DNA of 64,000 nucleotides from an uncultured Thermoanaerobaculia bacterium (lineage in GTDB: Bacteria; Acidobacteriota; Thermoanaerobaculia; Multivoradales; JAGPDF01). The stretch lies in the NCBI GenBank assembly GCA_964595975.1, contig CAZQTL010000001.1, forward strand, positions 3,164 to 67,163, in the 5' to 3' direction. A program made the translations under genes and the position numbers. Below, piece by piece: positions 10,387 through 64,000 of this stretch. The notes beneath the pieces are model-generated. The model saw only the letters and a program-made list of their open reading frames with translations. It was not told where the DNA came from and made no database searches. Numbering within the stretch: the first letter of the stretch is position 1; every line of letters starts with the position of its first letter.

Positions 10387-10414
10387 ATCGGGGCTCCGGC
10401 AGGAGCCAGACCCG

Positions 10415-10786
10415 TCAGGAGTCCTCGGCGTCCCAGTGGAAACGGTGCATCAGGCGGTGAAGCACCGGCGCGAAGATGATGCCGGCGGTGACCAGGACGG
10501 CCAGTCCGGAGTAGAGGGCGTAGAGTCCGGCGAAGAGCTTGCCGCTGGCGGTATGGGGCATGTCGACCGGACCCATTCCGCCGAGGATCATCGCCGCATT
10601 CAGGAAGGCGTCGATCCAGCCCAGATGCTCGAACCAGGCGTAGCCCGCCATGCCGAGGGCGAGGGACCCGGCGATGAAGCCGAAAGCGACGAAGAAGTGG
10701 ACGAACAGGCGGCGGCGATAGGCCGGGCGCGGCAGCAGCGGCCGGTCTCGGCGTTCGTAGCGGAACATCGCGTCAGCTCGCGCCAT
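10415..10786 (-). CDS. Small 2-TM ion-channel-like membrane protein (pore-loop architecture, non-canonical filter)
   Basis: 123 aa. Layout is TM1 (LFVHFFVAFGFIAGSLALGMAGYAWF), then a pore-helix-like GWIDAFLNAAMILGGMGPVD, then TM2 (GKLFAGLYALYSGLAVLVTAGIIF). This resembles the K-channel pore module, but ILGGMGP stands where T-V-G-Y-G would be. Confidence 0.45.
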   Translation of the reverse strand: MARADAMFRYERRDRPLLPRPAYRRRLFVHFFVAFGFIAGSLALGMAGYAWFEHLGWIDAFLNAAMILGGMGPVDMPHTASGKLFAGLYALYSGLAVLVTAGIIFAPVLHRLMHRFHWDAEDS

Positions 10787-11165
10787 CGCGGACCGGCGAA
10801 CGGAAGAGGGCGCGGCCGAACCAGATCGCGAAGAGGATGTAGACGCAGGTGAGGGCGACCAGCCCGGCCGGACGCTCGCCGCTGGCGACGGCGCGGACGA
10901 AGGCCAGCCCGACGCTGGTGAAGTGGAGGAGGTTCCCGAGCACCACCGGGCGATTGTAGATGCCGCCGACGATCATGTCGCGGACCGACCAGTTCAGCAT
11001 CGCAAAACCGAGATAGAGACCGCCGGCGACCTGCACCAGAAGGACCGCCGGCGAAGAGCCGCCGCAGCCCGCCTGGGCGACGAGCTCCTGCGGCAGGAAC
11101 GTCGCCGTCAGGCCGAGGACGCCGAGGGCGGCCGCGCTGAGGCTCATCATCCATTTCGTCGGCAT
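10773..11165 (-). CDS. Hypothetical 4-TM membrane protein
   Basis: 130 aa and hydrophobic throughout. It overlaps the downstream gene by 14 nt. I recognise no motif. Confidence 0.5.
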   Translation of the reverse strand: MPTKWMMSLSAAALGVLGLTATFLPQELVAQAGCGGSSPAVLLVQVAGGLYLGFAMLNWSVRDMIVGGIYNRPVVLGNLLHFTSVGLAFVRAVASGERPAGLVALTCVYILFAIWFGRALFRSPVRDGAS

Positions 11166-11252
11166 GGGCTCGTTTCGGCTCCAGGTTGAGGGCGGTGATT
11201 CTATCCTCGCAGCCTGCCGGTCCGCGGCGATCGACTTCGGTAGTATCTCGGG

Positions 11253-22234: not shown

Positions 22235-22296
22235 TGGGGCGGATCCTACACGGGCCGGGCCGCGGTTTCCCGCCTTGCGTTACACTTTGAAAAATC

Positions 22297-24851: not shown

Positions 24852-24861
24852 GAGTCCGCCG

Positions 24862-50355: not shown

Positions 50356-52575
50356 CTAGACCGGGCCGGCCGGCGCGGCCATCTTCTCGAGCAGGCTGGC
50401 GTAGGCCGTTTCGGTGTAATCGCGCACCATGCGGTCGCTGGAGAACTTCGGCGTGATGGTGGCGATCGCCTCCTTCATCCGTCGCAGCCACTCGACCGGC
50501 AGGCCGGCCTCGTTGCGGTCGTAGTAGATCGGCACGATCTGCTCCTCGAGCAGGTCGTAGAGCGCCAGGCCGTCCTCGCGGTCGGTCTTCGCTTCGTCGG
50601 CCAGCGGCTCCTTGCCGGCCGAGGTGTCGCGGGTCGGATCCTCCGCCGCGCTGCCGATGACCCAGCCGTTCTCGCCGTCGTAGCCCTCGGGCCACCAGCC
50701 GTCGGCGATCGAGCAGTTGAGGGCGCCGTTCATGGCGGCCTTCATGCCCGAGGTCCCGGAGGCTTCGAGCGGCCGGCGCGGGGTGTTCAACCAGACGTCG
50801 ACTCCCTGAACCAGCATCCGCCCGACCCGCATGTCGTAGTCCTCGACGAAGAAGACCTTGCCTTTGAGCGCCTCGGACTGCGACAGCTGGAAGATGTGCT
50901 GGATCAGCTCCTGGCCGGCCTTGTCGGCGGGATGGGCCTTGCCGGCGAGCAGGATCTGGAGCGGCCGCTCGCTGTCGCCGACCAGCTTGCGCAATCGATG
51001 CAGGTCCGAGAACAGAAGTCCGGCGCGTTTGTAGGTGGCGAAGCGGCGGGCGAAGCCGATCGTCAACACTTCCGGATCGAAGGTGTGCTCGAGCTTGCGC
51101 AGCTCGGCCGGCGACAGGCCATGGCGTGCGAACTGGTCGCGCAGCCTGGAGCGCAGGAAGCGGGCGAGGTGGCGTTTCTGGGCAAGGTGGACCTCCCACA
51201 GCGGTCCGTCGGGCGCGGCGAGGATGGCGTCGCGGCCCTCGGGGCTGGTCACGACCTGCGGCCAGCGCTCGCCGAACCAGCTGGTGAAGAGCTCCTGCAG
51301 CTCGATGCCGAGCCAGCTCGGGGGATGCACGCCGTTGGTGATGGCGCGGATCTGCTCGGCCTCCGGCCGGTTCGCCGGAATCACATGATGCCACATCTTG
51401 CCCGAGACTTTGGCGTTGATCTCGGAGACGCCGTTGATGCGCGAGCTGGTGCGGATGGCGAGCGCCGTCATGTTGAGCGGCTGGTTGGGCTCGCCGTGGT
51501 CGTTGTTGCCGAGCCCGAGCCACTGCTCCGGCTCGATCCCCAGCTCGCCGCAGAGCGGATCGAAATAGGCGCGGATCAACGGCGCATCGAAGACCTCGTT
51601 GCCCGCCGCCACCGGGGTGTGGGTGGTGAAGACCGAAGTCCGCCGGAGCTCGGCGATCGCGCTGTCGAAGCTCTCGCCGCGCTCCTTCATCCGCCGGCGC
51701 AGGCGTTCGAACTGCAGGAAGGCGGAGTGCCCTTCATTCATGTGCCAGACCGCCGGCTCGATGCCGAGCGCCTCCAGGGCGCGGGCGCCGCCGATGCCGA
51801 GCACGAGCTCCTGCGCCAGTCGCATCTCGCGCCCCGGCGTGTAGAGGATGCTGGTGATCGGGCGGTCGGCCGAGTCGTTCTGGGCGACGTCGGTGTCGAG
51901 CAGCAGCAGCGGCACGCGTCCGACGAGGGCGATCCAGACCTGCAGGTGCAGCTCGCGGCCGCCGTAGGGGATCGACACCATGACCGGCCGCCCGGTGTGG
52001 CCGGCCGCCGGACGCAGCGGCAGGCGGGAGAAGTCGTGTTCGGGATAGATGTGCTGCTGGCGGCCGTCAGCGTCGATGTTCTGATGGAAGTAGCCGTTGC
52101 GATAGAGGAGCCCGACGCCGACCAGCGGCACGCCGAGGTCGCTGGCGCTCTTCAGGTGGTCGCCGGCGAGGACTCCCAGGCCGCCGGAGTAGAGCGGCAG
52201 CGACGGATCGAGGCCGTACTCCATGCAGAAGTAGGCGATCGGTCCGTCGAGATCGGGATGCGTCTTCGCGAACCAGGTTTCGGCGCTGCCGGCCATGTAG
52301 CTCTCGAACATCCGGATGACCTTCTGATACAGGCCGCGGAAGTGGTCGTCCTCGAGTTTGGCCTGCCAGTGGTCGCGGTCGAAGTTGATCAGCAGCTGCA
52401 CCGGGTTGCGGTACAGCGACCAGGCGCGCCCGTCCATGGCGGCGAACAGCTCGCGCGCGGCGGGGTTCCAGGTCCACCAGAGATTGCAGGCGAGGTCGTA
52501 GAGACCCTGCACCTCGCGCGGCAGTTCGATGCCGGCGATGTGCAGGCGTGGAAGCTTCGTGAAGTCGGGCGGCAT
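50356..52575 (-). CDS. glgP: Alpha-glucan (glycogen/maltodextrin) phosphorylase, GT35
   Basis: 739 aa. The PLP-lysine region EASGTSGMKAAMNG is present, and the protein is phosphorylase-like over its full length. Confidence 0.85.
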   Translation of the reverse strand: MPPDFTKLPRLHIAGIELPREVQGLYDLACNLWWTWNPAARELFAAMDGRAWSLYRNPVQLLINFDRDHWQAKLEDDHFRGLYQKVIRMFESYMAGSAETWFAKTHPDLDGPIAYFCMEYGLDPSLPLYSGGLGVLAGDHLKSASDLGVPLVGVGLLYRNGYFHQNIDADGRQQHIYPEHDFSRLPLRPAAGHTGRPVMVSIPYGGRELHLQVWIALVGRVPLLLLDTDVAQNDSADRPITSILYTPGREMRLAQELVLGIGGARALEALGIEPAVWHMNEGHSAFLQFERLRRRMKERGESFDSAIAELRRTSVFTTHTPVAAGNEVFDAPLIRAYFDPLCGELGIEPEQWLGLGNNDHGEPNQPLNMTALAIRTSSRINGVSEINAKVSGKMWHHVIPANRPEAEQIRAITNGVHPPSWLGIELQELFTSWFGERWPQVVTSPEGRDAILAAPDGPLWEVHLAQKRHLARFLRSRLRDQFARHGLSPAELRKLEHTFDPEVLTIGFARRFATYKRAGLLFSDLHRLRKLVGDSERPLQILLAGKAHPADKAGQELIQHIFQLSQSEALKGKVFFVEDYDMRVGRMLVQGVDVWLNTPRRPLEASGTSGMKAAMNGALNCSIADGWWPEGYDGENGWVIGSAAEDPTRDTSAGKEPLADEAKTDREDGLALYDLLEEQIVPIYYDRNEAGLPVEWLRRMKEAIATITPKFSSDRMVRDYTETAYASLLEKMAAPAGPV

Positions 52576-52623
52576 GGTGCGGATTCTCTCTTTCCCTGTT
52601 GGGCAGTTCAGACTGTGACCCAG

Positions 52624-54435
52624 CTAATCTTCGGGTGGCCGGGCCCACTCCGGTTCGAGGTCGGGAAACGGCATGTCCCCCTCGACCCATCCCGGAAGCG
52701 CGCGAGTGCGCGGACCCAGGTCGATCAGCTCCCGCAGGCGGGAGCAATGCTGGCGAAAGCGTTCCTCGGCATAGTCGCCGCCCGTCCCCATAGTCACCAG
52801 GAACGGCCAGTCGGAGGCGGCGGCGAGCAGCATCTGGTTGAGAATCGCCCGCCGCCACTTCCGCGGCCCGCCCCAGCGCACCGCCGCGAAGGCGTGGCGC
52901 TCGAGGTCGGCGAGCTCGCGCCAGAACCACTCGGTCTGCGGGTTGACCCAGACGCGATGATCGCCACTCGCGCCCCAGGAACCCTCGGCGAAGAAGGCGC
53001 GGCGCAGCAGCGGATGGCTCGCCAGCTCGCGGTCGGGAGTGGTCGCCTCGACCGCCGCGCCAGGGGCCGCGAGCTCGAGGACCTTCTCGAGCCAGATCGG
53101 CCCTTCGAACCACCAGTGTCCGAAGAGCTCGGCGTCGAACGGACAGCAGATCAGTCCGTCGTTCATGCCGTCGAGTCCGGTGGCGAGCTCGATGAAGTGC
53201 TCGGCCTGCTCCTGGGCGCGCTTGCGCGCCTCTTCGGGCCAGTAGACGAGCTTGTCCATGAGGTCGGCTTCCGGATCGGTTACCCGCCAGAGCCGCAGCC
53301 CCGAGGGCCACTGGCGCTTGTGGAAGTCGAGGAAGGCGCCGTCTCCGGGATAGCCGCCCTGCCGCGACCAGACCTGGGCGGCGGTGCGCGCGTCGCGCAG
53401 GAACGCGGCGACGGCGCTCTGCCGGATCCAGTAGGGGTGGGGGTGCGGTCCGGAGGGCTCGACGATCTCCTCCGGACGCGTGTTGGCGCCGTAAGGGAAA
53501 GCGGGGTCGCCGCGCCGCAGCAGGTGGGCGTCGACCACCGTCCAGCGCATCCCCTGCTCGGAGAGGAACTGCTCGTTGCCGGGCCGCCCCTCCTCGAACG
53601 CGCCCGTCACCGGGTGTTGCCACGGCCCGCCGGGGCGGTAGGCGCACTCGGGCATCCAGCAGCCGCGCGGGTCGTCGCCGAACAGCTCGCGATGCTGCTC
53701 TTTGCCGGTGCGCAGGGCGAGCCGGATCAGTTTGGTGGTGTGGGCGAGCGGCAGATAGACGTGCGTCCCCGCCGAGGTGGCGAGCTCGAGGGCTCCGCTC
53801 TCGCCCAGCCGGGCGAGCGTCGCCACGAGGTCGTGGTCGAAGCGGTCCCAGATGGCGCGCAGCCGTTCGAACTCGCCGTGCCACCAGAGAGCGAGGGGGT
53901 GCTTGCGCCGTGCCTCCCAGGCCGACTTGGTGCGCTCGGTGAGATAGCGCTCGACGACCGCTTCGGTGCGCCCGTCGGCGAGCATCGCGGCGAGGATCGG
54001 CGTGACTTCGAAGGCGAACAGATGTCGCCGCCCGCGCGCGGCGAGGCGATCGGCCAGGTCGAGCAGCGGCAGGTAGCAGTGCACGATCGCCTCCGCCAGC
54101 CAGTCCTCGCCGTGCGGCCAGGTGCCGTGGCCGAGAACCCAGGGCAGGTGCGCGTGGAGGACGAAGGCGAGGCGGCGCGGCTGGCCGGCCGGGCCGGGTG
54201 CCGCCGGGTGCGGCGCGAGCTCCGGCAGCGGCTCGAGCAGCGGCCGCTGCAGGAACTGGATGCGGATCTCCTCCCGCTCCACCGGAATGGCCGGAAGCGG
54301 CGCGCGCCCGGCCTTCGGCTCCGGCCTGGCCGGCGCCTTCGGCGCGCCCTTCGCTGCGGCGGGGGGCCGGGCGACGGTCCCGGTCGCGGGCGGGCGCTTC
54401 CCCGGCGCTTTTCCCTTCGGTTTCCTGGGGCTCAT
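52624..54435 (-). CDS. GH57 family 1,4-alpha-glucan branching enzyme with a ~95-aa basic Pro/Ala/Lys-rich N-terminal extension
   Basis: The ATG at 54435 overlaps the DHH gene stop (ATGA). GH57 motifs VLHAHLPWV, CWMPECAY and FDAELFGHWWFEG are present. The track ORF (to 56988) is a read-through artefact. Confidence 0.8.
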   Translation of the reverse strand: MSPRKPKGKAPGKRPPATGTVARPPAAAKGAPKAPARPEPKAGRAPLPAIPVEREEIRIQFLQRPLLEPLPELAPHPAAPGPAGQPRRLAFVLHAHLPWVLGHGTWPHGEDWLAEAIVHCYLPLLDLADRLAARGRRHLFAFEVTPILAAMLADGRTEAVVERYLTERTKSAWEARRKHPLALWWHGEFERLRAIWDRFDHDLVATLARLGESGALELATSAGTHVYLPLAHTTKLIRLALRTGKEQHRELFGDDPRGCWMPECAYRPGGPWQHPVTGAFEEGRPGNEQFLSEQGMRWTVVDAHLLRRGDPAFPYGANTRPEEIVEPSGPHPHPYWIRQSAVAAFLRDARTAAQVWSRQGGYPGDGAFLDFHKRQWPSGLRLWRVTDPEADLMDKLVYWPEEARKRAQEQAEHFIELATGLDGMNDGLICCPFDAELFGHWWFEGPIWLEKVLELAAPGAAVEATTPDRELASHPLLRRAFFAEGSWGASGDHRVWVNPQTEWFWRELADLERHAFAAVRWGGPRKWRRAILNQMLLAAASDWPFLVTMGTGGDYAEERFRQHCSRLRELIDLGPRTRALPGWVEGDMPFPDLEPEWARPPED

Positions 54436-55517
54436 GGCAACTGGCGCTCCGGCGGCTCGGGAGCGGCGAGCTCGACCTTGGCGAGATCGATCGCCGCGAG
54501 GCGCTCCGGGTTCTTCTTGAGCGCCCGGGCGAAGCGCAGGGCGAGCATACGTTCGATCGCCCGTCCGCCGTCGGCTGCGGTCTTCGGGATGGTGACGAAA
54601 CCCCCGGCCATGGTGCCGTGGCCGCCCCCCTTGCCGAGCAGGCCGATCAGCCGCCGCATGAGATTGCCGGCGTCGGCGCGCGCATTGGTGGTGCGGATCG
54701 AGAGGTAGACGCGGTCGGCGTGGCTGCCGGTGCACAGCGACCAGGTCTTGCCCTCCATGCGGAGAAGCAGATCGGCGATCTCCGGCACGATGTCGGGTTG
54801 GTCGACCTCGCCCAGGTTCGAAACCACGAGGTTGCCGACGCCGGCCAGGTTCTCGAGCGCCCGGTGGAGGTTGCGGAAGTAGACCAGCGGCAGGCGGGCG
54901 CTCTGGATGCGCGCCAGCATCCGTCGGTCGATGTGCGGCAGCAGGGCGTCGAACGCCGCATGGTCCGGGCCGGCCGCCTCGCGGCCGAAGTCCTGGGTCT
55001 CCGAGCGGATGGCGTAGACCAGGCCGGTGGCGAGCGCCCGGGAAGGCTTCAGTCCGCTCGCGTCGAGGTACTCGGCGAGGATCGTGGCGGTCGCGCCGTA
55101 GCGCGGACGCACGTCGACCGTGGCGGCTGCCAGCGTCGACTTGCGCAGCGGGTGGTGGTCGATGACCAGGTCGGGGACGATGGTCTTCGGCAGTTGCGAA
55201 TTCCCCGACCAGGGCTGGCAGTCGATCATGGCGAACGAGCTGTAGTTCCGCTTGTTGACGTTGCGCAGATGGGAGAGCGGCAGCCTCAGGCTGCGGACCA
55301 TCTCGCGGTTCTCGGCGCGGCCGATGATGCCGCCGTAGGCCACCGTGACGGAACGCTTGAAGCGCCGCCGCAGGATGAGCGCCAGGGCCGCGGTGGCGGC
55401 CAGGGCATCGGGGTCCGGGTTGTCGTGAGTCAGGACGAGCCAGCGGCCGCGCTTCGGACTGGCCTCGATCCGTTCCGCGAGGGCGGCGAAACGGACCCTC
55501 GTCTCCTCGGTCGACAT
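54432..55517 (-). CDS. DHH/DHHA1 family phosphoesterase (NrnA-like)
   Basis: 361 aa. Motifs LVLTHDNPDPDALA, IDHH and GKGGGHGTMAGG are present. Confidence 0.8.
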   Translation of the reverse strand: MSTEETRVRFAALAERIEASPKRGRWLVLTHDNPDPDALAATAALALILRRRFKRSVTVAYGGIIGRAENREMVRSLRLPLSHLRNVNKRNYSSFAMIDCQPWSGNSQLPKTIVPDLVIDHHPLRKSTLAAATVDVRPRYGATATILAEYLDASGLKPSRALATGLVYAIRSETQDFGREAAGPDHAAFDALLPHIDRRMLARIQSARLPLVYFRNLHRALENLAGVGNLVVSNLGEVDQPDIVPEIADLLLRMEGKTWSLCTGSHADRVYLSIRTTNARADAGNLMRRLIGLLGKGGGHGTMAGGFVTIPKTAADGGRAIERMLALRFARALKKNPERLAAIDLAKVELAAPEPPERQLP

Positions 55518-55608
55518 GGGCCCCGGATTGTAGCAGCGGCGCTGCTGCGCTCCTGGCCCGCGCTCCGCTATACTGCGGCGCGCATCCTGTTGATCGAGAC
55601 GCCTTTCC

Positions 55609-56829
55609 TTGGCCCGAGTCCTCTTCCTTTCGCCCGGCTATCCCAGCGAGATGCCGCATTTCGTCCGCGCCCTGGCCGAGGTCGGCGCGGAGGTCCTGGG
55701 CGTCGGTGACCAGCCAGCGGGGACGCTCGCGGCCGAAACCCGGGGCGCCCTGACGGACTACCTGCGGGTGCGGACGCTGTGGGACGAAGCGACGCTGGTC
55801 GAGGAGGTCTCGCGCTGGCTCGCGGGCCGCACGCTCGACCGGGTCGAGTGTCTGTGGGAACCCGGCATGCTGCTCGCCGCGCGACTGCGCGAAGCGCTGC
55901 ACGTTCCCGGACTGACGGTCGCCCAGACCGTGCCCTTCCGCAACAAGGAAGAGATGAAGCGGCGGCTCGACGCCGCCGGGATTCGCACGCCGCGCCATCT
56001 GACGGCGGTCGACGAAGCCGGAATCCGCGCCGCCGCCGAGCGCATCGGCTTCCCGCTCATCCTGAAGCCGATCGACGGCGCCGGCTCGGCCGACACCTAC
56101 CGGGTGACCGACGCAGCCGAGCTCGAGCGCGCCCTGCCGAAGGTGCGGCACGTCCGGGAGCTCTCGGTGGAGGAGTTCATCGACGGCGAGGAGTACACCT
56201 TCGACACGGTGTCGATCGCCGGCCGTCCGGCCTACTACAACATCGCCTGGTACCGCCCCCGGCCGCTGCGGGCGCGTTCCGAGGAGTGGATCAGCCCGCA
56301 GGTCGTCGCCCTGCGCGACCCGGACCAGCCGCAGCTGCGGGGCGGCGTCGAGATGGGGTTCGACGTTCTGGCGGCGCTCGGCTTCGAGTCGGGCTTCACC
56401 CACATGGAGTGGTACCAGAAGGCCGACGGCGAAGTGGTCTTCGGCGAGATCGGCGCGCGGCCGCCGGGCGCCCATCAGGTCGACCAGATGAACTATGCCT
56501 GCGACATCGACGTCTTCCGCGGCTGGGCCGATGCCGTCTGCTTCGGTCGCTTCCGCGAGAACGTGCGTCGGCGCTACAACGTGGCGACGATCTACAAGCG
56601 CGCGACGGGCGAAGGGCGGATCCAGCGCATCGAGGGGTTCGAGGAGTGGAAGGCCCGCCACGGCGCGGCGCTCGTCTGGGACAACCTCCTGCCGGTGGGT
56701 GCGCCGCGCCGCAACTGGAAGCAGACCCTGGTTTCCGACGGCTTCGTGATTCTCCGGCATCCGGATCTCGCCGTCACCCTGGCCATGGCCGACGAGTTCG
56801 GCGCGGATGTGCGGCTCTTCGCTGCGTAA
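55609..56829 (+). CDS. ATP-grasp domain protein, paralogue 1 of 3 (unassigned carboxylate-amine ligase)
   Basis: 406 aa with a TTG start. ATP-grasp core motifs are present: GFPLILKPIDGAGSADTYRV, VEEFIDGEEYTFDT and HMEWYQKADGEVVFGEIGARPPGA. Confidence 0.75.
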   Translation: MARVLFLSPGYPSEMPHFVRALAEVGAEVLGVGDQPAGTLAAETRGALTDYLRVRTLWDEATLVEEVSRWLAGRTLDRVECLWEPGMLLAARLREALHVPGLTVAQTVPFRNKEEMKRRLDAAGIRTPRHLTAVDEAGIRAAAERIGFPLILKPIDGAGSADTYRVTDAAELERALPKVRHVRELSVEEFIDGEEYTFDTVSIAGRPAYYNIAWYRPRPLRARSEEWISPQVVALRDPDQPQLRGGVEMGFDVLAALGFESGFTHMEWYQKADGEVVFGEIGARPPGAHQVDQMNYACDIDVFRGWADAVCFGRFRENVRRRYNVATIYKRATGEGRIQRIEGFEEWKARHGAALVWDNLLPVGAPRRNWKQTLVSDGFVILRHPDLAVTLAMADEFGADVRLFAA

Positions 56830-56845
56830 GAGAACAAGGAGAGAG

Positions 56846-58066
56846 ATGTCATCGGTCGTCTTCGTCGCGCCCTTCTTTCTCGACACGACGCTGCGCTTCG
56901 TCGAGGCGGTCGCCGATCTGCCCGGCGTCCGCACCGGTCTGATCAGCCAGGACCCCGCGGAGCGTCTCCCGCCGGGCCTGCGGTCCAAGCTCGCGGCGCA
57001 CTACCGCATCGCCGACGGACTCGATCCGCAGCAGATCGCCGACGCCGTGCGCGGCCTCGCGCGGCAGATCGGTCCGCCGCAGCGGCTCATCGGCGCCCTC
57101 GAACAGCTGCAGGTGCCGCTCGGCGAGGTGCGCGATGCCCTCGGCATCGACGGGATGGGCGCGGAAGTGGCGAAGAACTTCCGCGACAAGGCGCGCATGA
57201 AGACCGTGCTGCAGCGCGCCGGCGTGCCCTGCGCGCGCCACCAGCGCGTGACCAGCGACGCCGAGGCCTGGGGCTTCGTCGAAGGCGTGGGCTATCCGGT
57301 GGTGCTCAAGCCGACCTCCGGCGCCGGGGCGAAGAGCACCTTCCGCGTCGGCGACGCCGGCGAGATGCGGTCGGCGCTGGCGCAGGTCCGGCCGTCGCCG
57401 GAGCGCCAGGCCGTGGTCGAGGAGTTCGTCGTCGGCGACGAGTTCTCGTTCGACACCGTTTCGATCCGCGGCCGGCCGGTCTGGCACTCGCTCTCGTACT
57501 ACCTGCCGGCGCCGCTCAACGTCGTCGACAACCCCTGGATCCAGTGGTGCGTGCTGATTCCGCGCGAGATCGACCACCCGCGCTTCGACGACATCCGCCG
57601 GGTCGGCTTCCGCGCCCTGGAGGTGCTCGGCATGGGCACCGGCCTGTCGCACATGGAGTGGTTCCGCAGGGCCGACGGTTCGGTGCTGGTCTCCGAAGTC
57701 GGCGCGCGGCCGCCGGGGGCGCAGATCACGTCGCTGATCTCCTACGCCCACGACATCGACTTCTATCGCGCCTGGGCGCGCCTGGTGGTGAAGGAAGAGT
57801 TCGATCCGCCGCCGCACCGGTTCGCTGCCGGCGGAGCCTACCTGCGCGGCCAGGGCCAGGGGCGCGTCCGCGCGGTGCACGGCCTGGCCGAGGTGCAGCG
57901 CGAGCTCGGACAGCTGATCGTCGAGGCGAAGCTGCCCCAGGTCGGCCAACCGCAGTCGTCGAGCTACGAGGGAGAGGGGTATATCCTCTTCCGCCATCCC
58001 GAGACGGCGGTGGTGGAGGCGGCGCTGAAACGCACGATCTCGACCGTGAGAGTGGAGCTGGGATGA
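56846..58066 (+). CDS. ATP-grasp domain protein, paralogue 2 of 3 (diverged member)
   Basis: The ATG at 56846 is preceded by AAGGAGAGAG. Motifs GYPVVLKPTSGAGAKSTFRV, VEEFVVGDEFSFDT and HMEWFRRADGSVLVSEVGARPPGA are present. Confidence 0.75.
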   Translation: MSSVVFVAPFFLDTTLRFVEAVADLPGVRTGLISQDPAERLPPGLRSKLAAHYRIADGLDPQQIADAVRGLARQIGPPQRLIGALEQLQVPLGEVRDALGIDGMGAEVAKNFRDKARMKTVLQRAGVPCARHQRVTSDAEAWGFVEGVGYPVVLKPTSGAGAKSTFRVGDAGEMRSALAQVRPSPERQAVVEEFVVGDEFSFDTVSIRGRPVWHSLSYYLPAPLNVVDNPWIQWCVLIPREIDHPRFDDIRRVGFRALEVLGMGTGLSHMEWFRRADGSVLVSEVGARPPGAQITSLISYAHDIDFYRAWARLVVKEEFDPPPHRFAAGGAYLRGQGQGRVRAVHGLAEVQRELGQLIVEAKLPQVGQPQSSSYEGEGYILFRHPETAVVEAALKRTISTVRVELG

Positions 58067-59286
58067 CCATGAACGTGCTGATGCTGTCGCCGGGATATCC
58101 GGCCGAGATGCCCTACTTCACCCGCGGGTTGTCGCTCGTCGGGGCGAAGGTGATCGGGCTCGGCGACCAGCCGAAGGAGATGCTTCCTCCGGTCGCCCGC
58201 GAGCACGTCGCGCATCATCTGCAGGTGCGCTCGCTCTGGGACGAAGCGGCGGTCGTGCAAGAAGTGCAGCGGCTGGCCCGCCAGATCCGCATCGACCGCG
58301 TCGAGTGCCTGTGGGAACCCGGGATGATCCTCGCCGCGAAACTCCGGGAAGCGCTGGAGCTCCCCGGCATGACGGTCGCCCAGACCATCCCGTTCCGCGA
58401 CAAGGAGATCATGAAGCAGCGCCTGGACGCGGCCGGCATCCGGACTCCGCGCCATTTTCGCGCCAACACCGAGGATCAGGTGCGCGACGCCGCGGAGCGC
58501 ATCGGCTATCCGGTCATCGTCAAACCGATCGCCGGCGCCGGCTCCGCCGACACGCACCGCTGCGACTCGCGGGCCGAGCTCGAACGCGCCCTGAAGCTGT
58601 CGAAGCACGTCCAGGAGGTCTCGGTCGAGGAGTTCATCGAAGCGGAGGAGTTCACCTTCGACACCATCTGCGCCGGCGGCAGGATGTACTTCGAGAACAT
58701 CTGCTGGTACCGCCCGCGGCCCCTCATCCAGCGCCAGAACGAGTGGATCAGCCCGCAGACCGTCTGCCTGCGCGAGCTTGACGTGCCCGATCTCGCCGGC
58801 GGGCGGAAGATGGGGCGGGAGGTCCTCGCGGCGCTCGGCTTCGAGACCGGCTTCACCCACATGGAGTGGTACCGGAAGGCCGACGGCGAAGTCGTCTTCG
58901 GCGAGATCGGCGGCCGTCCGCCGGGGGCGCGCACGGTCGACATCATGAACTACTGCACCGACAACGACACCTACGTCGGGTGGGCGGAGGCCGCCTGCCT
59001 CGGACGGGTCGAACGCCGCTTCGAGCGCAAGTGGAACGTGGTGATCACCTTCAAGCGCGCCCGCGGCGAGGGCCGCATCCAGCGCGTGGCCGGCCTGGAG
59101 AAGTTGCTCGCCGAGTTCGGCCGCTATGTCGTCGAAGTCGACCTGACTCCGATCGGGGCGCAGCGCCGCAACTGGAAGCAGACCCTGATCGGCGACGGCT
59201 ACATCGTCGTGCGGCACCCCGACCTCTCGACCGCCCTGCACATGGGCGAGCGCATGGCGCAGGACGTTCAGCTCTTCGCCGGCTGA
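58063..59286 (+). CDS. ATP-grasp domain protein, paralogue 3 of 3 (close to paralogue 1)
   Basis: The ATG at 58063 overlaps the previous stop (ATGA). The protein is colinear with paralogue 1 throughout (e.g. DRVECLWEPGMILAAKLREAL, RLDAAGIRTPRH, RRNWKQTLIGDGYIVVRHPDL). Confidence 0.75.
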   Translation: MTMNVLMLSPGYPAEMPYFTRGLSLVGAKVIGLGDQPKEMLPPVAREHVAHHLQVRSLWDEAAVVQEVQRLARQIRIDRVECLWEPGMILAAKLREALELPGMTVAQTIPFRDKEIMKQRLDAAGIRTPRHFRANTEDQVRDAAERIGYPVIVKPIAGAGSADTHRCDSRAELERALKLSKHVQEVSVEEFIEAEEFTFDTICAGGRMYFENICWYRPRPLIQRQNEWISPQTVCLRELDVPDLAGGRKMGREVLAALGFETGFTHMEWYRKADGEVVFGEIGGRPPGARTVDIMNYCTDNDTYVGWAEAACLGRVERRFERKWNVVITFKRARGEGRIQRVAGLEKLLAEFGRYVVEVDLTPIGAQRRNWKQTLIGDGYIVVRHPDLSTALHMGERMAQDVQLFAG

Positions 59287-59334
59287 GCGGCGACCTCCAG
59301 GGACCGTCGAACGCCGACTCGACACGGGACAGCC

Positions 59335-60954
59335 ATGGCCAAGACCGTTCTCTTCTCGCGCCTGCAGCGCCTGTTCGCCCTCTCCCGCGCCGCGCATCGC
59401 ACCGGCGTTCCGCCGCGCGAGGCGCTCGATCGCGCCCGCTCTGGCCCGACCCGTCGCGAGCTCGTCGCCGGTGCGACCGTCGTCGGCGCCGGCCTCGCGC
59501 TCGGTTGCGACCGCGTGCGCTCGCTGCTGCCGCGCAAGCTCGGCGGCGCGGCCCGCGAGGTGGCCATCGTCGGCGGTGGCATCGCCGGACTCACCTGCGC
59601 CTGGCGGTTGACGCAGGCGGGAGTGGCCGCGCGGATCTACGAAGCGCAGGACCGCATCGGCGGCCGGATGTGGTCGCTCACCGGCGCCTTCCCGGAGGGG
59701 CAGGTGTGCGAGCTCGGCGGCGAGCTGATCGACACCGGCCACGAGCGGATTCGCGCCCTGGCGGCGGAGCTCGGCCTCGAGCTCGACGACCTGTCGCTCT
59801 ACGAGTCCGGCCTGGCGAGGGATCTCTTCTGGTTCGACGGCCGGCAGTACGGCGACGCCGAGGTCGTCGAGGCCTTCACGCCGATCGCCGGGCGGATCGA
59901 TGCCGCCTGGGAGGCGATCACCGGCGAGACGGTCTCCTATCGCGAGCCGAATGGCGGCGAGACGATCGACAACCAGTCGATCGCCGAGTGGCTCGATGAA
60001 GCCGGGTGCACCGGCTGGTTTCGCAAGCTCCTCGATGTCGCCTACACCACGGAGTACGGCCTCGAGATCGGCGACCAGTCGGCGTGGAACCTGCTGATGA
60101 TGATCGACACCGAGCCCGATCCGTTCAAGGTGTTCGGCGACAGCGACGAGCGCTTCCACGTGCGCGGCGGCAACGACCTCATCCCGCGCCGTCTCGGCGA
60201 CCGCCTGGCCGGGCGGATCGAGACCGGCGTGCGCCTCGAGGCGGTGGCGGCGAAGAGCGACGGCTCCTACGTCCTGACGATGCGCCGCGGGGCCTCGACA
60301 TCCGAGGTCGCCGCCGAGCACGTCGTGCTCGCCTTGCCGTTCACTCTGCTGCGCGACGTGCGGCTCGACCTCTCCTTGCCGGCGATCAAGCGCAAGGCGA
60401 TCGCGGAGCTGGGTTACGGTACCAACGCCAAGCTGATGGTCGGATTCTCCGACCGCGTCTGGCGGCAGCCGCGCGCCGGCGGCGGTGGGGTGTCGGGGCG
60501 CGCACCGGGCTCGAACGGCAGCGTGCTCACCGACCTGCCGTTCCAGCTCACCTGGGAGGCGACGCGAATGCAGCCCGGAAAGGCCGGGATCCTGGTCTGC
60601 TACACCGGCGGCGAGCGCGGCGTCGAGCTCGGGCAGGGCACGTCCGCCGCGCAGTCCGAACGCTTCGCTCGCGAGCTCGAGCGGGTCTTCCCAGGGGTTT
60701 CGGAGCGGCGGCTGGGCGAGGCCCGGTTCCACTGGCCGAGCTTCGAGTTCACCCGCGGCAGCTACGCCAGCTATCGCGTCGGCCAGTGGACGACGATCGG
60801 CGGTGCCGAAGGGGAGCGGGTGGGGAACCTGCATTTTGCCGGCGAGCACACCTCGGCCGACTTCCAGGGCTTCATGGAAGGCGGCTGCGAGTCCGGCGAG
60901 CGGGCGGCGCGGGAGATTCTCGGCGATCTCGGCATCACCCCGCCGGCGGCGTAA
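59335..60954 (+). CDS. Flavin-containing amine oxidase family protein with Tat-like signal and lipobox
   Basis: 539 aa. TRRELVAGATVVGAGLALGC combines a twin-arginine, a hydrophobic region and an L-A-L-G-C lipobox. The FAD dinucleotide fold is VAIVGGGIAGLTCAWRL...YEAQDRIGGR, and the C-terminal FAGEHTS motif is present. Confidence 0.75.
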   Translation: MAKTVLFSRLQRLFALSRAAHRTGVPPREALDRARSGPTRRELVAGATVVGAGLALGCDRVRSLLPRKLGGAAREVAIVGGGIAGLTCAWRLTQAGVAARIYEAQDRIGGRMWSLTGAFPEGQVCELGGELIDTGHERIRALAAELGLELDDLSLYESGLARDLFWFDGRQYGDAEVVEAFTPIAGRIDAAWEAITGETVSYREPNGGETIDNQSIAEWLDEAGCTGWFRKLLDVAYTTEYGLEIGDQSAWNLLMMIDTEPDPFKVFGDSDERFHVRGGNDLIPRRLGDRLAGRIETGVRLEAVAAKSDGSYVLTMRRGASTSEVAAEHVVLALPFTLLRDVRLDLSLPAIKRKAIAELGYGTNAKLMVGFSDRVWRQPRAGGGGVSGRAPGSNGSVLTDLPFQLTWEATRMQPGKAGILVCYTGGERGVELGQGTSAAQSERFARELERVFPGVSERRLGEARFHWPSFEFTRGSYASYRVGQWTTIGGAEGERVGNLHFAGEHTSADFQGFMEGGCESGERAAREILGDLGITPPAA

Positions 60955-61020: not shown

Positions 61021-61863
61021 ATGGGGCTCAAAGAGGTCCTGAGCAAGCTCAAGCTGGTGGAGGTCACGGAGCCCGCCGAACCCGAGCCCGGGCTGGGCGG
61101 CGCTGCCGCCTCGGGGCGCGCGCCGGCCGCTTCGCGGTCCGATCCGCCGGAGCTCGCGGAGCTGCTGCGCAATCTCCCGCCGCCGAAGCCGATCGACGAG
61201 GCGGCGCTGGCGAAGCGACGCCGCGAGGGAACGGCTCCGGCGCCGCAGCGTTCTGCCGGAGCGGCGCCAGCCGCCGAGCGTTCGGGCGCAGCTTCTGCTG
61301 TGGTCGAGGTCGGGAGCGGAGCTGCCGCTGCCGCGCAGACCTCCGACGACGAGCTCGAGCTACCCGACTTTCCAGAGGTCTACCGCGCCGCCGGCATCGG
61401 CGAGCCGCCGCACGGCTTCACCGCCTTCAAGATCCTCGAGATGCTGCAGAGTCCAGGCCTCGCCGAGCTCGCGCCGCAGGCCAAGGCGGCCGCCCTCGCC
61501 GGCTTCCTGAGGATGAACCCCGGCGGACCGGTGGCGATCGGCGAGGTCATCCAGGACGCCGTGCGTCGCGATCAGGCGCTCGACCGCTTCGAGCAGTTCC
61601 TGCAGGCCAAGCTCGCCGAGCGCCAGGCCGCGGCGGAGCGCGCCAACGCCCGGCTCCAGGCGGAGATCGACGCGCTCACCGAACGTCACCGGGCGACGAT
61701 GGCAGCGAACGTGCGCGCGGTTTCCGAGCTCACGGCGCGACTCGCCGAGTGGAGCGCCGCCAAACGCGTCGAAGAGCGCAAGCTCCAGTCCGCCGTCGCT
61801 CCGTTCGTGGACGGCAATCCGATCAGCACCGATTCCGCCGGCGGCACGAAGTCCGGCTCCTGA
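61021..61863 (+). CDS. Hypothetical protein, first gene of the PspA/IM30 operon
   Basis: The ATG at 61021 has GGAGGG 11 nt upstream. The protein has an amphipathic N-terminus (MGLKEVLSKLKLVEV), an Ala/Pro-rich linker, and a helical/coiled-coil C-terminal half (AERQAAAERANARLQAEIDALTERH). Confidence 0.55.
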   Translation: MGLKEVLSKLKLVEVTEPAEPEPGLGGAAASGRAPAASRSDPPELAELLRNLPPPKPIDEAALAKRRREGTAPAPQRSAGAAPAAERSGAASAVVEVGSGAAAAAQTSDDELELPDFPEVYRAAGIGEPPHGFTAFKILEMLQSPGLAELAPQAKAAALAGFLRMNPGGPVAIGEVIQDAVRRDQALDRFEQFLQAKLAERQAAAERANARLQAEIDALTERHRATMAANVRAVSELTARLAEWSAAKRVEERKLQSAVAPFVDGNPISTDSAGGTKSGS

Positions 61864-61874
61864 GGAGAACTTCA

Positions 61875-62633
61875 ATGTTCAGTCGTCTCGTCCGTGTGAT
61901 CAAGTCCTGGCTCGGCTTCTTCATCTCCTATGCCGAAGACCCCGAGGTCATGCTGCAGGAGTCGATCGAGGAGATGCGCAACACGCTGCCGAAGCTGAAT
62001 CAGATCCTGGTGACCACCCGCGCCACCGAGATTCGGCTCGAGCAGGACCTGTTGGAGGCCCAGCGCAAGGAGAAGTCGCTGGTTGCGTCCATCAAGACCG
62101 CTCTCGCCGACGGCAGTCCGGAAGCCCGGCGCCTGGCGGAGGACGACGCCTCTACGCTGCAACAGGTCCGCCTCGAAGTGCAGTCGACCACCGAGCAGCT
62201 CGAGGCGGCGAAGAACGCCTTCGAGAACGCCAAGCTGTCGGTCGACGACATCAAGGAGAAGCTGCGCCAGAAGATCGAGCAGGCGCGCAAGGCGATCGCC
62301 GAGTCGAAGAAGGCCGAGGTCATGCGCAGTGCCGCGAACGCCCTGGCCGAGCTCGACACCTACGGCACGGCGGCGACCACCGACAAGTATCTCGACCAGA
62401 TCCGTCAGAAGGTGGCGGAGTCGAAGGCCTCGGTCGAGGTCGCGACCGGTGGGCTCGACACCGAGCGCATCAAGCTCGAGCGCAAGTCGCGCCAGCTGCA
62501 GGCGCAGTCGATCCTCTCCGAGTTCGAGGTCGAGATGGGCATCAAGAAGCCCGACGCGGTCAAGGAGGCAGCGCCGTTCCCGGCCGAGAGCGCGAGCCAG
62601 GCCACCCCCCAGAAGCAGCCGGAGCGCGGCTAG
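61875..62633 (+). CDS. pspA: PspA/IM30 (Vipp1) family protein
   Basis: The ATG at 61875 is preceded by GAGGAG. MFSRLVRVIKSWLGFFISYAEDPEVMLQESIEEMRNTL matches the PspA N-terminal helix plus the AEDPEKML-type motif. The rest of the protein is long coiled coil. Confidence 0.85.
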   Translation: MFSRLVRVIKSWLGFFISYAEDPEVMLQESIEEMRNTLPKLNQILVTTRATEIRLEQDLLEAQRKEKSLVASIKTALADGSPEARRLAEDDASTLQQVRLEVQSTTEQLEAAKNAFENAKLSVDDIKEKLRQKIEQARKAIAESKKAEVMRSAANALAELDTYGTAATTDKYLDQIRQKVAESKASVEVATGGLDTERIKLERKSRQLQAQSILSEFEVEMGIKKPDAVKEAAPFPAESASQATPQKQPERG

Positions 62634-62645
62634 GGTCGCCAGCGT

Positions 62646-63515
62646 TTGAGCTTCCTCGAACGTCATCCCGCCCTGAAGAAGGCGGTCGCCAACCAGTACC
62701 AGGCGATCCTCGCCGCGGGCGCGATCGGGTTTTCCGCGGTCACCCTCTCGCCGCTGCCGCTGATGCTCTGGGCGGGGCTGCAGATGATGACGCTGCCGTT
62801 CCTCGTCGAGCGGCTCAAGCGACGCCTGGAGATCGAACGCAAGTTCGCCGCCCGCGAGGCCGTCGAGATGTCGCAGGACCAGCAGCTCGCCGCGCTGCCG
62901 GCGGCGGCGCGCAATCGCCTGCAGCGCGTGCAGCAGCTGTGCGAGCGCATCCAGTCGAATTACAAGGGACTGTCGCCCGCCAGCCAGGGGGTGATGGCCG
63001 ATCAGGCGGCGAAGTTCGACGCCGTGCTCGCCTCGTTCCTGCGCCGCCTCTGGCTGCTGCAGAAGTACGACGAGATGGCGGCGGCCTCGGACGACGGCCG
63101 GGTGCGCCAGGAGATCGAGCGCCTCGACCGCCAGCTTTCGACGGCGGAGCTCGCGCCGCGGGTTCGCGAGGCGCTCGAGAAGAACCTCGAGATTCAGCGC
63201 CAGCTCGTCCTGGCGGTGGAGAAGAACGAACAGAACAGCGCCGCCCTGGCGGCCGAGCTCGATTCCCTCGAGGCGCTGCTGCAGCTGCTGCTGCAGAAGT
63301 CGGTCGCCGCCACCGACGCCACGGCGTTCTCGGCCGAGATCGACGACGTGCTGGCGCAGGTCGAAGCCGACCACGCGTCGGTGGAGGAGATGGAGCGCAT
63401 GCTGGGCGCGCTGCCGCAGGTCGAAGAGCGCGAGCCGCTGGGGCCGCGGTTGCGCCTCCCGGTCCTGCCGCCGGTGCCGCCGCCTCCGCCGGAACGGTCG
63501 CGGAGCCGGCGATGA
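62646..63515 (+). CDS. Membrane-anchored coiled-coil protein (hypothetical), PspA operon
   Basis: 289 aa with a TTG start. It has an N-terminal hydrophobic hairpin (AILAAGAIGFSAVTLSPLPLMLWAGLQMMTLPFLV), about 200 aa of heptad-like helix, and a Pro-rich basic tail. Confidence 0.55.
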   Translation: MSFLERHPALKKAVANQYQAILAAGAIGFSAVTLSPLPLMLWAGLQMMTLPFLVERLKRRLEIERKFAAREAVEMSQDQQLAALPAAARNRLQRVQQLCERIQSNYKGLSPASQGVMADQAAKFDAVLASFLRRLWLLQKYDEMAAASDDGRVRQEIERLDRQLSTAELAPRVREALEKNLEIQRQLVLAVEKNEQNSAALAAELDSLEALLQLLLQKSVAATDATAFSAEIDDVLAQVEADHASVEEMERMLGALPQVEEREPLGPRLRLPVLPPVPPPPPERSRSRR

Positions 63516-64000
63516 GTGACGCGCCGGCCAAGGGCTTCTTCAGCAGCCTCCCCGGTTGGGCGGCGACGCTCGCCCGGACGGTGGCCGCGAAGCAGGCGAA
63601 CACCTTCGTGATCCACGGCCTGCCGGCCGATCTCATCCCGGTGCGGCAGGAGTCGGGGCTCTCCTTCCAGCTGCTCGACAACTTCCTGACCGAAGTGCTG
63701 TTCGCTTCCTGGCCCTCCCGCCTGACTTACAACCGCGCCGAGGGCCTGGGCTTCGCGACGCCGCAGGCGAAGCAGCATTTCATGGAGCGCCTGAAGGCCT
63801 ACGACGCGGTGCACGGCACTTCCTGGGGCGAGGCGCTGCCGCGCGACGCCGCCAACGCCTTCGCCCTGCTCGACTCGTATTTTCGCCATTGCGCGACCCT
63901 CGCACCCGCCCGGCCGGTGGTGCTCCTCCTGCCGTTCGCCGAAACGCTGGTCCCCAACGGCGAGGCGTCCTACCGCACGCCGGAGGATCGCGCCGTGCTG
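63512..64000 (+). CDS. Hypothetical protein, 5' part only (possibly the degenerate N-terminal domain of an ATPase); runs off the window
   Basis: The ATG at 63512 overlaps the previous stop (ATGA). The frame is open to 64000 (163 codons). No Walker A motif appears in the visible part. Strand-like segments TFVIHGLPADL and VVLLLPFAETL are present. Confidence 0.5.
   Translation, partial: MSDAPAKGFFSSLPGWAATLARTVAAKQANTFVIHGLPADLIPVRQESGLSFQLLDNFLTEVLFASWPSRLTYNRAEGLGFATPQAKQHFMERLKAYDAVHGTSWGEALPRDAANAFALLDSYFRHCATLAPARPVVLLLPFAETLVPNGEASYRTPEDRAVL

Follow-up and report, generated by a model that had tools for sequence, protein, structure and literature searches.

Gene organisation of the ligase locus

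Three consecutive genes coding for ATP-grasp ligases, followed by one coding for a flavin amine oxidase, lie on the forward strand of the window (the whole stretch of 64,000 nucleotides that was analysed). P1 (55609-56829), an A-type ('A-prime') ligase of 406 amino acids, begins with a TTG in the ORF list; P2 (56846-58066), with an ATG start and likewise of 406 amino acids, is of the B-type; and P3 (58063-59286; 407 amino acids) is the canonical A-type ligase. The product of the oxidase gene (59335-60954), 539 amino acids long, has a Tat signal, and its Cys58 is probably the cysteine of a lipobox. All four gene calls were backed by both the ORF list and a GC3-based gene caller, with GC3 values from 0.91 (the value of P1) to 0.93.

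The stop codon of P1 (TAA, 56827-56829) is followed by a 16-nt spacer, gagaacAAGGAGagag, up to the P2 ATG at 56846. Direct reading of this spacer places an AAGGAG ribosome-binding site for P2 at 56836-56841 on the forward strand, as originally predicted. The TGA of P2 (58064-58066) and the ATG of P3 (58063-58065) overlap as ATGA, so that the predicted start of P3 inside the P2 stop codon could also be read directly, which supports translational coupling; with the alternative in-frame ATG at 58069 (MNVLM...), the start favoured by most homologues, there would be a 2-nt gap instead. The spacers of 91 bp 5' of P1 and 48 bp 3' of P3 are too short to hold a precursor-peptide ORF, in agreement with the predicted lack of one. 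About 35 nt 5' of the P1 start, a -10-like hexamer, TATACT (55569-55574, forward strand), is a candidate promoter element of the trio operon and was found in the intergenic region of six of the seven trio lineages. A consensus scanner detected no full sigma-70 site in the region, so that the promoter role of the hexamer stays putative.

P1 and P3 share 245 of 403 residues (61%, E = 0) in a gap-free alignment, while identities are 34% between P1 and P2 (E = 1e-70) and 32% between P2 and P3 (E = 2e-66). Judged by these comparisons, the paralogy of the three proteins is far beyond chance. The initial description of three full-length, colinear homologues of about 406 amino acids, P1 and P3 being more than half identical and P2 diverged with the ATP-grasp core retained, therefore holds, and the PF02222 ATP-grasp model of Pfam matched P1 with 29.5 bits (cut-off 27) and P2 with 40.2 bits. 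That the ligases stand outside the characterised subfamilies was borne out by an NCBIfam profile search, in which all matches fell far below the cut-offs and no curated family model was reached: the L-amino-acid ligase (LAL) models BacD and DdaF gave 33 bits versus 850 and 36.5 versus 840, respectively, LAL_C2 was below its cut-off, and TIGR02068 (cyanophycin synthetase) gave 34-39 bits versus 850. None of the more than 7,600 homologues of P2 is a named protein.

A widespread B-A pair with an amino-acid-ligase fold

Relatives of these ligases are carried by 597 of the 600 scanned stretches of the species genome collection, and the resulting spread of at least 597 species in many phyla is a lower bound. 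The unit conserved across phyla is not the trio but a pair, in which a B-type gene (P2) is directly followed by an A-type gene (P3). A B-type gene is present in 75 of the 82 loci compared, and the B-to-A junctions (n = 71) are tight, with a 4-nt overlap in 27 cases and no more than 17 nt in 55. The B clade comprises 64 sequences, including P2. A-type proteins are 55-66% identical between phyla, and clustering at 50% shrinks the family to nearly one cluster, with only 241 representatives at E <= 1e-30. P1 is nested within the A clade, differs from the canonical A-type at only three highly conserved positions and has orthologues only in Thermoanaerobaculia/Holophagae loci and two MAGs. It is a second A-type copy, which originated in the Thermoanaerobaculia/Holophagae lineage and was retained by purifying selection, and P2 and P3 are the local copy of a widespread, tightly coupled cytoplasmic ATP-grasp enzyme pair. 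The fixed A-B-A' set of the original prediction thus gives way to a basic unit of B and then A, P1 being a class-level extra A in place of which other phyla have a third paralogue, of a C-type clade, beside the pair (49 of the 82 loci).

When the A-type profile was compared with PDB sequences, the best match was the LAL BL00235 (E = 5e-25), followed by RizA (E = 1e-21). AF2 models of P3 and P2 (pLDDT 90.8 and 91.8, respectively) were placed by Foldseek nearest to the same enzymes, P3 matching RizA (E = 1.3e-27), BL00235, YwfE/BacD and then PurT/PurK, in this order, and P2 matching RizA and BL00235 best. This top tier (RizA, BL00235, YwfE/BacD) had TM values of 0.74-0.83, and a second structural tier consisted of PurT, PurK and 4DIM, a structure named as a GAR synthetase. 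All three clades (A, B and C) keep the catalytic set K154, E189/E190, H266, E268, E281 and R285. According to the models, P2 and P3 have the fold of L-amino-acid ligases, with the ATP/Mg and catalytic residues intact. With the solved LALs (RizA 4WD3, BL00235 3VOT, YwfE/BacD 3VMM/3WNZ), the window ligases have in common the three-domain ATP-grasp fold, the LAL-type C-terminal region, the E-x-G/A-x-R catalytic motif and a length of about 400 amino acids; however, identity is just 14-20% in the Foldseek alignments and, unlike LALs, the window family forms a fixed B-A pair plus third paralogue and is extremely conserved between phyla.

With RizA, BL00235 and BacD as the nearest solved structures, and RizA and RizB as a precedent of two LALs working in succession, the product could be a secondary-metabolite dipeptide antibiotic such as bacilysin (BacD) or rhizocticin (RizA/RizB). 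We consider this highly improbable, since a distribution over so many species and phyla at about 60% identity is unlike that of patchy, fast-evolving biosynthetic clusters, and since tailoring, export and resistance genes are absent from surroundings which, unlike those of LALs in antibiotic clusters, consist of glycogen genes and hydrolases. The second structural tier, together with the label 'GAR transformylase' given to the ligases in the source annotations, would suit a role in primary metabolism in the manner of PurT/PurK, with a small non-peptide substrate (for example, formylation, carboxylation or acylation of an amino-sugar or cofactor intermediate), and high conservation is consistent with core metabolism. 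Although PurT and PurK resemble the window ligases at a TM of about 0.7 and in length and domain order, their models score 18-45 bits, far under cut-offs of 318-502, and purine or cofactor genes are absent from the neighbourhood. Three or four paralogous ligases with hydrolases are also a better match for a product that is put together from several units and taken apart again, and a metabolic role of this kind is therefore improbable.

Glycogen genes, hydrolases and a possible product

In the window, the trio operon and a glycogen operon on the reverse strand (DHH-GH57-phosphorylase, 50356-55517) are divergently transcribed; the latter was recognised by Pfam matches for the DHH/DHHA1 protein gene (54432-55517) and the GH57 branching enzyme gene (52624-54435), these two overlapping by 4 nt, and by homology for the alpha-glucan phosphorylase gene (50356-52575). 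The same divergent layout exists at L003, L006, L007, L085, L088 and L091. Among the 82 pair loci, GlgA, GlgC, GlgB, phosphorylase or GH57 genes lie within 10 kb of the pair in 22, representing at least six phyla, and are often directly divergent from the B-type gene. This linkage, absent from the original prediction, is the strongest contextual signal and, together with the cross-phylum conservation of the pair, points to a peptide-like compound tied to energy storage.

Besides the C-type ligase, the 82 loci contain genes for Est245 (46), Est394 (43), an S51-like protein (38), AG417 (25) and M20 (17), and in representatives of these proteins an N-terminal signal peptide was not obvious by eye. 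The relationship to S51 is a distant one, with a best Pfam E value of about 2e-6, a putative catalytic His that is not invariant and no match among PDB sequences. A comparable arrangement is the cyanophycin system, in which a storage polyamide is made by ATP-grasp chemistry in two distinct ligation steps and broken down by a family S51 peptidase and then a dipeptidase, as the S51-like protein and M20 dipeptidase of related loci might do. However, CphA is one protein of about 900 amino acids with ATP-grasp and Mur-ligase-like domains, whereas the ligases here are separate proteins of about 406 amino acids with no Mur-like domain; the S51-like protein is very divergent; and, unlike the cyanophycin system, related loci carry esterases.

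We tentatively propose, with somewhat less than even confidence, that the pair are amino-acid-type ligases for an amide-linked, peptide-type reserve compound tied to glycogen. Polymerisation of amino acids through ATP-grasp chemistry is known from RizB-type LALs, RimK and the G domain of cyanophycin synthetase. Each enzyme would activate a carboxylate as an acyl-phosphate and join it to an amine, and B and A (plus A-prime here or the C-type elsewhere) would work on amino-acid-type building blocks either one after the other or assembled in a hetero-oligomer. The amide-linked product would most likely be a short peptide or an oligo- or poly-amino-acid reserve compound whose synthesis and breakdown run in parallel with those of glycogen; in other phyla, its degradation would fall to the S51-like hydrolase, the esterase-family hydrolases and the M20 dipeptidase, all cytoplasmic and co-clustered. 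Against this proposal, no S51-like, esterase or AG417 gene is present within the 64-kb window, and the glycogen linkage may reflect co-regulation instead.

Esterases are, moreover, unexpected for a pure polyamide, and their presence could indicate ester bonds or a glucan substrate. An alpha-glucan (glycogen or maltooligosaccharide) might be esterified or amidated with amino acids or short peptides that cytoplasmic CE1-like esterases remove, as ATP-grasp enzymes can form esters, e.g., D-Ala-D-Lac ligase. The interleaving of glycogen genes with the cluster at L069 (GlgC-C-S51-Est394-AG417-Est245-GlgA-B-A) and L078 (C-GlgA-B-A-GlgB) would agree with such decoration, as would the weak best matches of AG417, which are D-Ala-D-Lac and D-Ala-D-Ser ligases, and the domains of Est394, where an E-set N-domain (Enterochelin_N, E = 5e-7; faint CBM_20) is joined to an esterase domain of PF00756 and the PDB relatives include CE1 ferulic acid esterases. 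We nevertheless regard it as unlikely: the nearest fold relatives are all amine-to-carboxylate ligases, the E-set N-domain is just as good a match to enterochelin esterase, an enzyme for serine esters and not for glucans, the window is without these esterases, and bacterial glycogen is not known to be aminoacylated.

High cross-phylum conservation, with nearly a single cluster at 50% identity, is typical where enzymes contact conserved macromolecules and would be compatible, too, with a macromolecular substrate such as a protein. The ligases might then add amino acids to a conserved protein, possibly an enzyme of glycogen metabolism, in the way of RimK or tubulin-tyrosine ligase, with conceivable reversal by the co-clustered S51-like and M20 peptidases. 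The probability of this is low, since fold and sequence are nearer to free-amino-acid ligases than to RimK, LysX or tubulin-tyrosine ligase, the RimK/LysX models give only 25-37 bits versus cut-offs of 143-276, and the loci show no conserved gene for a small carrier or target beside the pair.

The flavin amine oxidase

The flavin amine oxidase expected 48 nt after the trio was confirmed as such by its match to PF01593 Amino_oxidase (189.6 bits versus a Pfam cut-off of 19.8), and the nearest PDB entries are monoamine oxidases (E = 1.5e-26). Its N-terminus (...GPTRRELVAGATVVGAGLALGC...) has the twin-arginine motif and lipobox that had been recognised at the outset. All 17 orthologues have the twin arginines without exception, and the lipobox Cys is aligned in 14 of the 17; it is displaced by a few residues in P0278, and P0316 and P0324 are without it.

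In the original prediction, trio and oxidase belonged to one pathway, an amine metabolite being made inside the cell by the trio and oxidised outside by the Tat-exported lipoprotein, or the reverse (salvage). The short gap between P3 and the oxidase gene, in which no terminator-like site was found, speaks for this, as does the position of the oxidase directly 3' of the trio in four of the seven trio lineages, namely the window, L091 (85% identical), L088 (63%) and L085 (61%). However, it is missing from this position at L003, L007 and L006, even though the P3 orthologue of L006 is 95% identical, and none of the 82 pair loci in other lineages has it. Orthologous oxidases (56-63% identical) are also found without the trio, beside an aldehyde dehydrogenase gene at L090 and adjoining methyltransferase and Pyr_redox_2 genes at L089. 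As the flanking PspA and DHH genes are as well conserved as the oxidase, inherited gene order alone can explain the synteny. Furthermore, the oxidase is exported, whereas ATP-dependent ligases are necessarily cytoplasmic, and the operon has no exporter. The proposed link is therefore weak, and a common pathway seems to us a slim prospect. The oxidase is probably a separate periplasmic module, exported by the Tat route, and probably stands outside the core of the ligase system; in some relatives it would have inherited gene order, and perhaps also a transcript, in common with the trio. It matches the flavin amine oxidases of PF01593 (MAO, putrescine oxidase, L-amino-acid oxidase) over the full length and has the FAD Rossmann motif in common with them, but differs from these in its Tat signal, which in most orthologues is accompanied by a lipobox, and in a conserved N-terminal extension of about 35 amino acids ahead of the RR motif.

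The operon and its enzyme family

The operon consists of three ATP-grasp genes on the forward strand, P1 (55609-56829, TTG start, 406 aa), P2 (56846-58066, 406 aa) and P3 (58063-59286, 407 aa), followed on the same strand by a flavin amine oxidase gene (59335-60954, 539 aa), all taken from the ORF list. In the four genes GC3 amounts to 0.91-0.93, as in coding sequence of this ~70% GC genome, which together with the ORFs indicates that they are real genes. P1 and P3 are 61% identical without a single gap, P2 shares 34% with P1 and 32% with P3, and all three pairwise alignments have E values of ~1e-66 or lower, in agreement with the original prediction of three homologous ORFs, two of them more than half identical and P2 diverged. 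The predicted junctions match the sequence as well: the TAA stop codon of P1 is followed by a 16-nt spacer with the ribosome-binding site AAGGAG and the ATG of P2, the TGA of P2 and the ATG of P3 overlap as ATGA (another ATG lies two codons downstream in P3), and 48 nt separate P3 from the oxidase. While these observations stood, the interpretation attached to them was supported in part only, as detailed below. A scan for sigma-70 promoters and terminators revealed nothing usable within the operon, and with Rfam neither a riboswitch nor any other RNA was detected in the window or in four related loci.

Pfam matches of P1-P3 were restricted to generic ATP-grasp domains, barely over the gathering score (PF02222: 29.5, 40.2 and 37.6 bits for P1, P2 and P3 versus a cut-off of 27). 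No NCBIfam model came near its cut-off, the top ones being PRK07206 and PRK02186 with 64-85 bits versus 302-625, and scores for the Ddl, RimK and LysX models of this collection were far below theirs, so the earlier failure to place the proteins in a characterised subfamily is borne out by profile searches. AlphaFold2 models of P3 and P2 (pLDDT of 90.8 and 91.8) show a three-domain fold with a central ATP-grasp domain, and their top 50 Foldseek matches are all ATP-grasp enzymes. RizA and BL00235 occupy ranks 1-3 and lead the list together with YwfE/BacD (TM 0.74-0.83), followed by PurT and PurK. Similarly, a profile of the A-type clade, to which P3 belongs, matched BL00235 (3VOT; E = 5e-25) and RizA (4WD3; E = 1e-21) among PDB sequences. 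The structural comparison proposed originally thus identifies L-amino-acid ligases (LALs), enzymes that build di- or oligopeptides from unprotected L-amino acids, as the nearest characterised ATP-grasp relatives of P2 and P3.

Although characterised LALs are the closest relatives in fold and sequence, identity to RizA, BL00235 and BacD is only 14-20% in the Foldseek alignments, and scores remain below the cut-offs for BacD (NF053745, 33 versus 850 bits), DdaF (NF041595, 36.5 versus 840) and the LAL_C2 domain (PF18603, 17.6 versus 29.4). Cyanophycin synthetase differs in that its ATP-grasp G domain is joined to an M domain of the Mur-ligase type, whereas P1-P3 have a single-domain architecture of ~406 aa and reach 34-39 bits with TIGR02068 (cut-off 850). 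Scores were also low for PurT (TIGR01142, 17.6-40.5 versus 502 bits) and PurK (TIGR01161, 23.7-35.7 versus 318 bits). As noted before, no precursor-peptide gene of the graspetide/RiPP type adjoins P1-P3, the spacers being 91, 16, -4 and 48 nt, and clustering of ORFs of at least 100 aa revealed no small ORF family conserved beside the pair of P2- and P3-type genes. The ATP-grasp hallmark comprises a Lys, a Glu-Glu hinge, two acidic Mg ligands and an Arg. K154, E189/E190, H266, E268, E281 and R285 (P3 numbering) are conserved in at least 93% of the members of each of the family's three clades; since ATP-binding, Mg-binding and catalytic residues are kept in all of them, no paralogue looks like a dead subunit. 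P1, P2, P3 and their relatives are a new, uncharacterised family inside a known superfamily. Nothing on this family was found in the literature covered, which did not extend to the 2009 amidoligase survey.

A conserved ligase pair and two routes to a third ligase

Over 7,000 homologues each were obtained for P3 and P2 (8,000 candidates scored), all unnamed or with generic names, and relatives are encoded in at least 597 of 600 scanned stretches of a one-genome-per-species collection. They occur in Acidobacteriota, Actinomycetota (including cultured Pseudonocardia and Actinoplanes), Planctomycetota including Brocadiaceae, Chloroflexota (Dormibacteria, Limnocylindria), Eisenbacteria, Gemmatimonadales, Rhodothermaceae and proteobacterial MAGs. 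A-type proteins are 55-66% identical to P3 across phyla, and a library clustered at 50% identity held only 241 representatives at E <= 1e-30, mostly fragments; as judged from these comparisons, conservation is unusually strong for a LAL-like enzyme.

Synteny was assessed at 82 loci, where a B-type gene (the clade of P2; 52-66% identical to it) is directly followed by an A-type gene, B being present in 75 of them. At 27 of 71 B-to-A junctions the genes overlap by 4 nt (ATGA), and at 55 they lie within 17 nt. The conserved unit is this B-A pair and not the trio: a fixed A-B-A' set, as first supposed, is present in the window, but the basic unit across phyla is B then A. The pair, present in hundreds of species and known from thousands of metagenomic copies, ranks with the better-conserved bacterial protein families of no assigned function.

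A neighbour-joining tree of 162 sequences resolved clades A (62), B (64) and C (36), with A sister to C. In 49 of the 82 loci a third paralogue of the C type is present, mostly divergent from B. A three-ligase set thus recurs, reached by two evolutionary routes (an extra A-type copy, A-prime, or a C-type gene), and the earlier sense that three ligases matter was correct in part. P1, the A-prime gene, falls within clade A in the same tree, and its orthologues are confined to Thermoanaerobaculia/Holophagae (L003, L006, L007, L085, L088 and L091) and the MAGs L049 and L079. A-prime and A are 58-65% identical within each trio genome, each being 63-75% identical to its own orthologues, and among the highly conserved positions only three distinguish A-prime from canonical A. 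Taken together, these data indicate that P1 is an old, class-level duplicate maintained by purifying selection.

Some loci depart from the usual arrangement. A-type genes without a B-type gene within 10 kb were found in L010, L051 and L049, and therefore the two are not strictly obligatory neighbours; in L049 a P1-like A-type gene directly adjoins GlgA, with the module described below located downstream. In L086, from a 9.3-Mb genome, a transposase (DDE_Tnp_ISAZ013) lies between B and A and a second one past A (6791-12922), a natural disruption of the pair. An apparent B-A fusion of 662 aa (P0082), whose junction is of low complexity, proved to be an artefact of a frameshift and lends no support to a complex.

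Glycogen genes, accompanying module and proposed function

The strongest contextual signal of the pair is its linkage to glycogen genes, which mark 22 of the 82 loci in at least six phyla (GlgA 11, GlgB 8, GlgC 6, phosphorylase 4, and also GH57), compared with ~1% of random loci expected by chance within 10 kb of such a gene, a rough and not a computed estimate. Further cases were seen besides those counted here. B frequently has GlgA or GlgC as its immediate divergent neighbour (L001, L008, L012, L027, L040, L055, L067, L069, L072, L077, L078 and L087), and GlgB is often directly 3' of A (L011, L023, L025, L032, L044, L078 and L084). In the window, an operon for a DHH/DHHA1 phosphoesterase, a GH57 branching enzyme and an alpha-glucan phosphorylase (50356-55517, reverse strand) is conserved in the six related trio loci; the DHH gene overlaps the start of the GH57 gene by 4 nt and the phosphorylase gene comes next. 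This operon and the trio diverge across a 91-bp intergenic region, an arrangement also seen in all six loci. When window positions 55518-55608 were aligned with the corresponding regions of L003, L006, L007, L085, L088 and L091, two -10-like hexamers stood out: TATACT (55569-55574, forward strand), ~35 nt before P1 and present in six of seven trio lineages, and the conserved TACAAT (TACAAT/TAGGAT-like; 55527-55532, reverse strand). Only ~10 nt separate the latter from the DHH start codon, suggesting a transcript of the glycogen operon that has no leader or a very short one. The gene just past that for the phosphorylase (48470-50254, reverse strand) encodes 594 aa with a Trypsin_2 domain and an N-terminus resembling a signal peptide.

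In 49 of the 82 loci, belonging to Actinomycetota, Planctomycetota, Acidobacteriota, Eisenbacteria and proteobacterial MAGs, the pair is accompanied by a module of varying gene order, made up of the C-type ligase, a divergent S51-like protein, Est394, Est245 and AG417 (examples among L011-L084 are L039, 6600-16100, L069 and L078). Of ten S51-like proteins, eight match PF03575 (best E = 2.2e-5), and the serine in AWSAGAM is invariant, the putative His not being so; searches against the PDB by sequence and profile gave no meaningful match. Est394 combines an Enterochelin_N/E-set N-domain with PF00756, its PDB relatives being enterochelin esterases and CE1 ferulic acid esterases, and Est245 is a second, weaker PF00756-like hydrolase. 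AG417 is a fourth, remote ATP-grasp protein with weak best matches to D-Ala-D-Lac/Ser ligases, and in Actinomycetota a PRK07907-type M20 dipeptidase is often added. Representative module proteins have no obvious signal peptide when inspected by eye, and the module is taken to be cytoplasmic. The 64-kb window contains no C-type ligase, S51-like protein, esterases, AG417, GlgA, GlgB or GlgC.

Each ligase would form an acyl-phosphate and transfer the acyl group to an amine, with B and A, together with A-prime or C, acting in succession or as a heteromer and giving a peptide-like product. Glycogen genes, a cyanophycinase-family member, PHA-depolymerase/CE1-type esterases and a dipeptidase form a recurring storage theme, and for this reason we tentatively prefer, at somewhat less than even chances, a reserve compound of the peptide or polyamide type whose regulation is shared with that of glycogen. 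Modification of proteins, action on a small non-peptide substrate and classical antibiotic dipeptide synthesis all appear less likely. The esterases of the module and the interleaving with glycogen genes would also fit a role of the glucan itself as acceptor of the ligases, which we consider improbable next to the peptide or polyamide reserve. Carried further, the B-A(-C/A-prime) set and its S51-like and esterase partners might make and recycle an undescribed reserve, either a poly-/oligo-amino-acid or depsipeptide store or an amino-acid/peptide-decorated glycogen. Such a reserve would share its regulation with glycogen and be widespread among phyla of soils and sediments, such as Acidobacteriota, Actinomycetota, Planctomycetota, Chloroflexota and Eisenbacteria; as a whole this proposal is rather unlikely. 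No system found corresponds to the pair with its module and its link to glycogen genes, the 2009 amidoligase survey lying outside the comparison. Once identified, the product might turn out to be a novel storage or stress compound of abundant, mostly uncultured soil phyla, and might give a new substrate class to the ATP-grasp ligases, enzymes of use in enzymatic peptide synthesis. Since cultured Actinoplanes and Pseudonocardia isolates carry the family, the question of the product can be addressed at the bench. Elsewhere in the window (20858-27767), genes for an amino-acid permease (reverse strand), an M20 peptidase, a DcuC/AbgT-like carrier, a class-III aminotransferase and an aldehyde dehydrogenase form what looks like a cluster for uptake and catabolism of a dipeptide or an N-acyl/omega-amino acid.

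The amine oxidase and the downstream region

The oxidase carries a full-length PF01593 domain (189.6 bits, residues 83-529) with an FAD-binding motif, as well as NAD_binding_8 (47.6 bits), and its nearest solved relatives are monoamine oxidases. The twin-arginine motif noted before is upheld by an RR invariant in 17 of 17 orthologues, while the lipobox was sustained less uniformly, its Cys being aligned in 14, shifted in one and absent from two. Export is likely, as is lipidation in the window genome. N-terminal to the Tat motif lies a conserved extension of ~35 aa (M..RTPLFR.L.R.L.LAR...; 59335-59450), unusually long for a Tat n-region.

As in the window, an oxidase gene is found 3' of the trio in L091 (85% identical), L088 (63%; a methyltransferase gene intervenes) and L085 (61%), but not in L003, L007 or L006. 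Synteny is patchy rather than absent throughout. In L006, whose P3 orthologue is 95% identical to that of the window, the X291/PspA genes directly follow the trio. At the 82 pair loci the oxidase is absent from all, and orthologues elsewhere (56-63% identical) adjoin an aldehyde dehydrogenase or methyltransferase gene. A methyltransferase gene lies closely upstream of the oxidase in L088 (directly) and in L089 (with a Pyr_redox_2 gene intervening). On either side, the PspA and DHH genes are equally well conserved in this class, and therefore inherited gene order suffices to account for the adjacency of trio and oxidase. Moreover, the ligases depend on ATP of the cytoplasm, while the oxidase would be exported. 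Given the patchy synteny, the empty count at pair loci and the different compartments, a direct link between trio and oxidase in one pathway, as originally hinted at, is very improbable.

Downstream, conserved genes of unknown function lie on both sides of a PspA/IM30 gene (61896-62633), one encoding a protein of 280-291 aa (no Pfam match) and the other a protein of 289 aa (weakly DUF7760-like). This region (61021-64000) looks like a conserved membrane-stress operon, and in L088 and L091 its genes are followed by one for an AAA ATPase.
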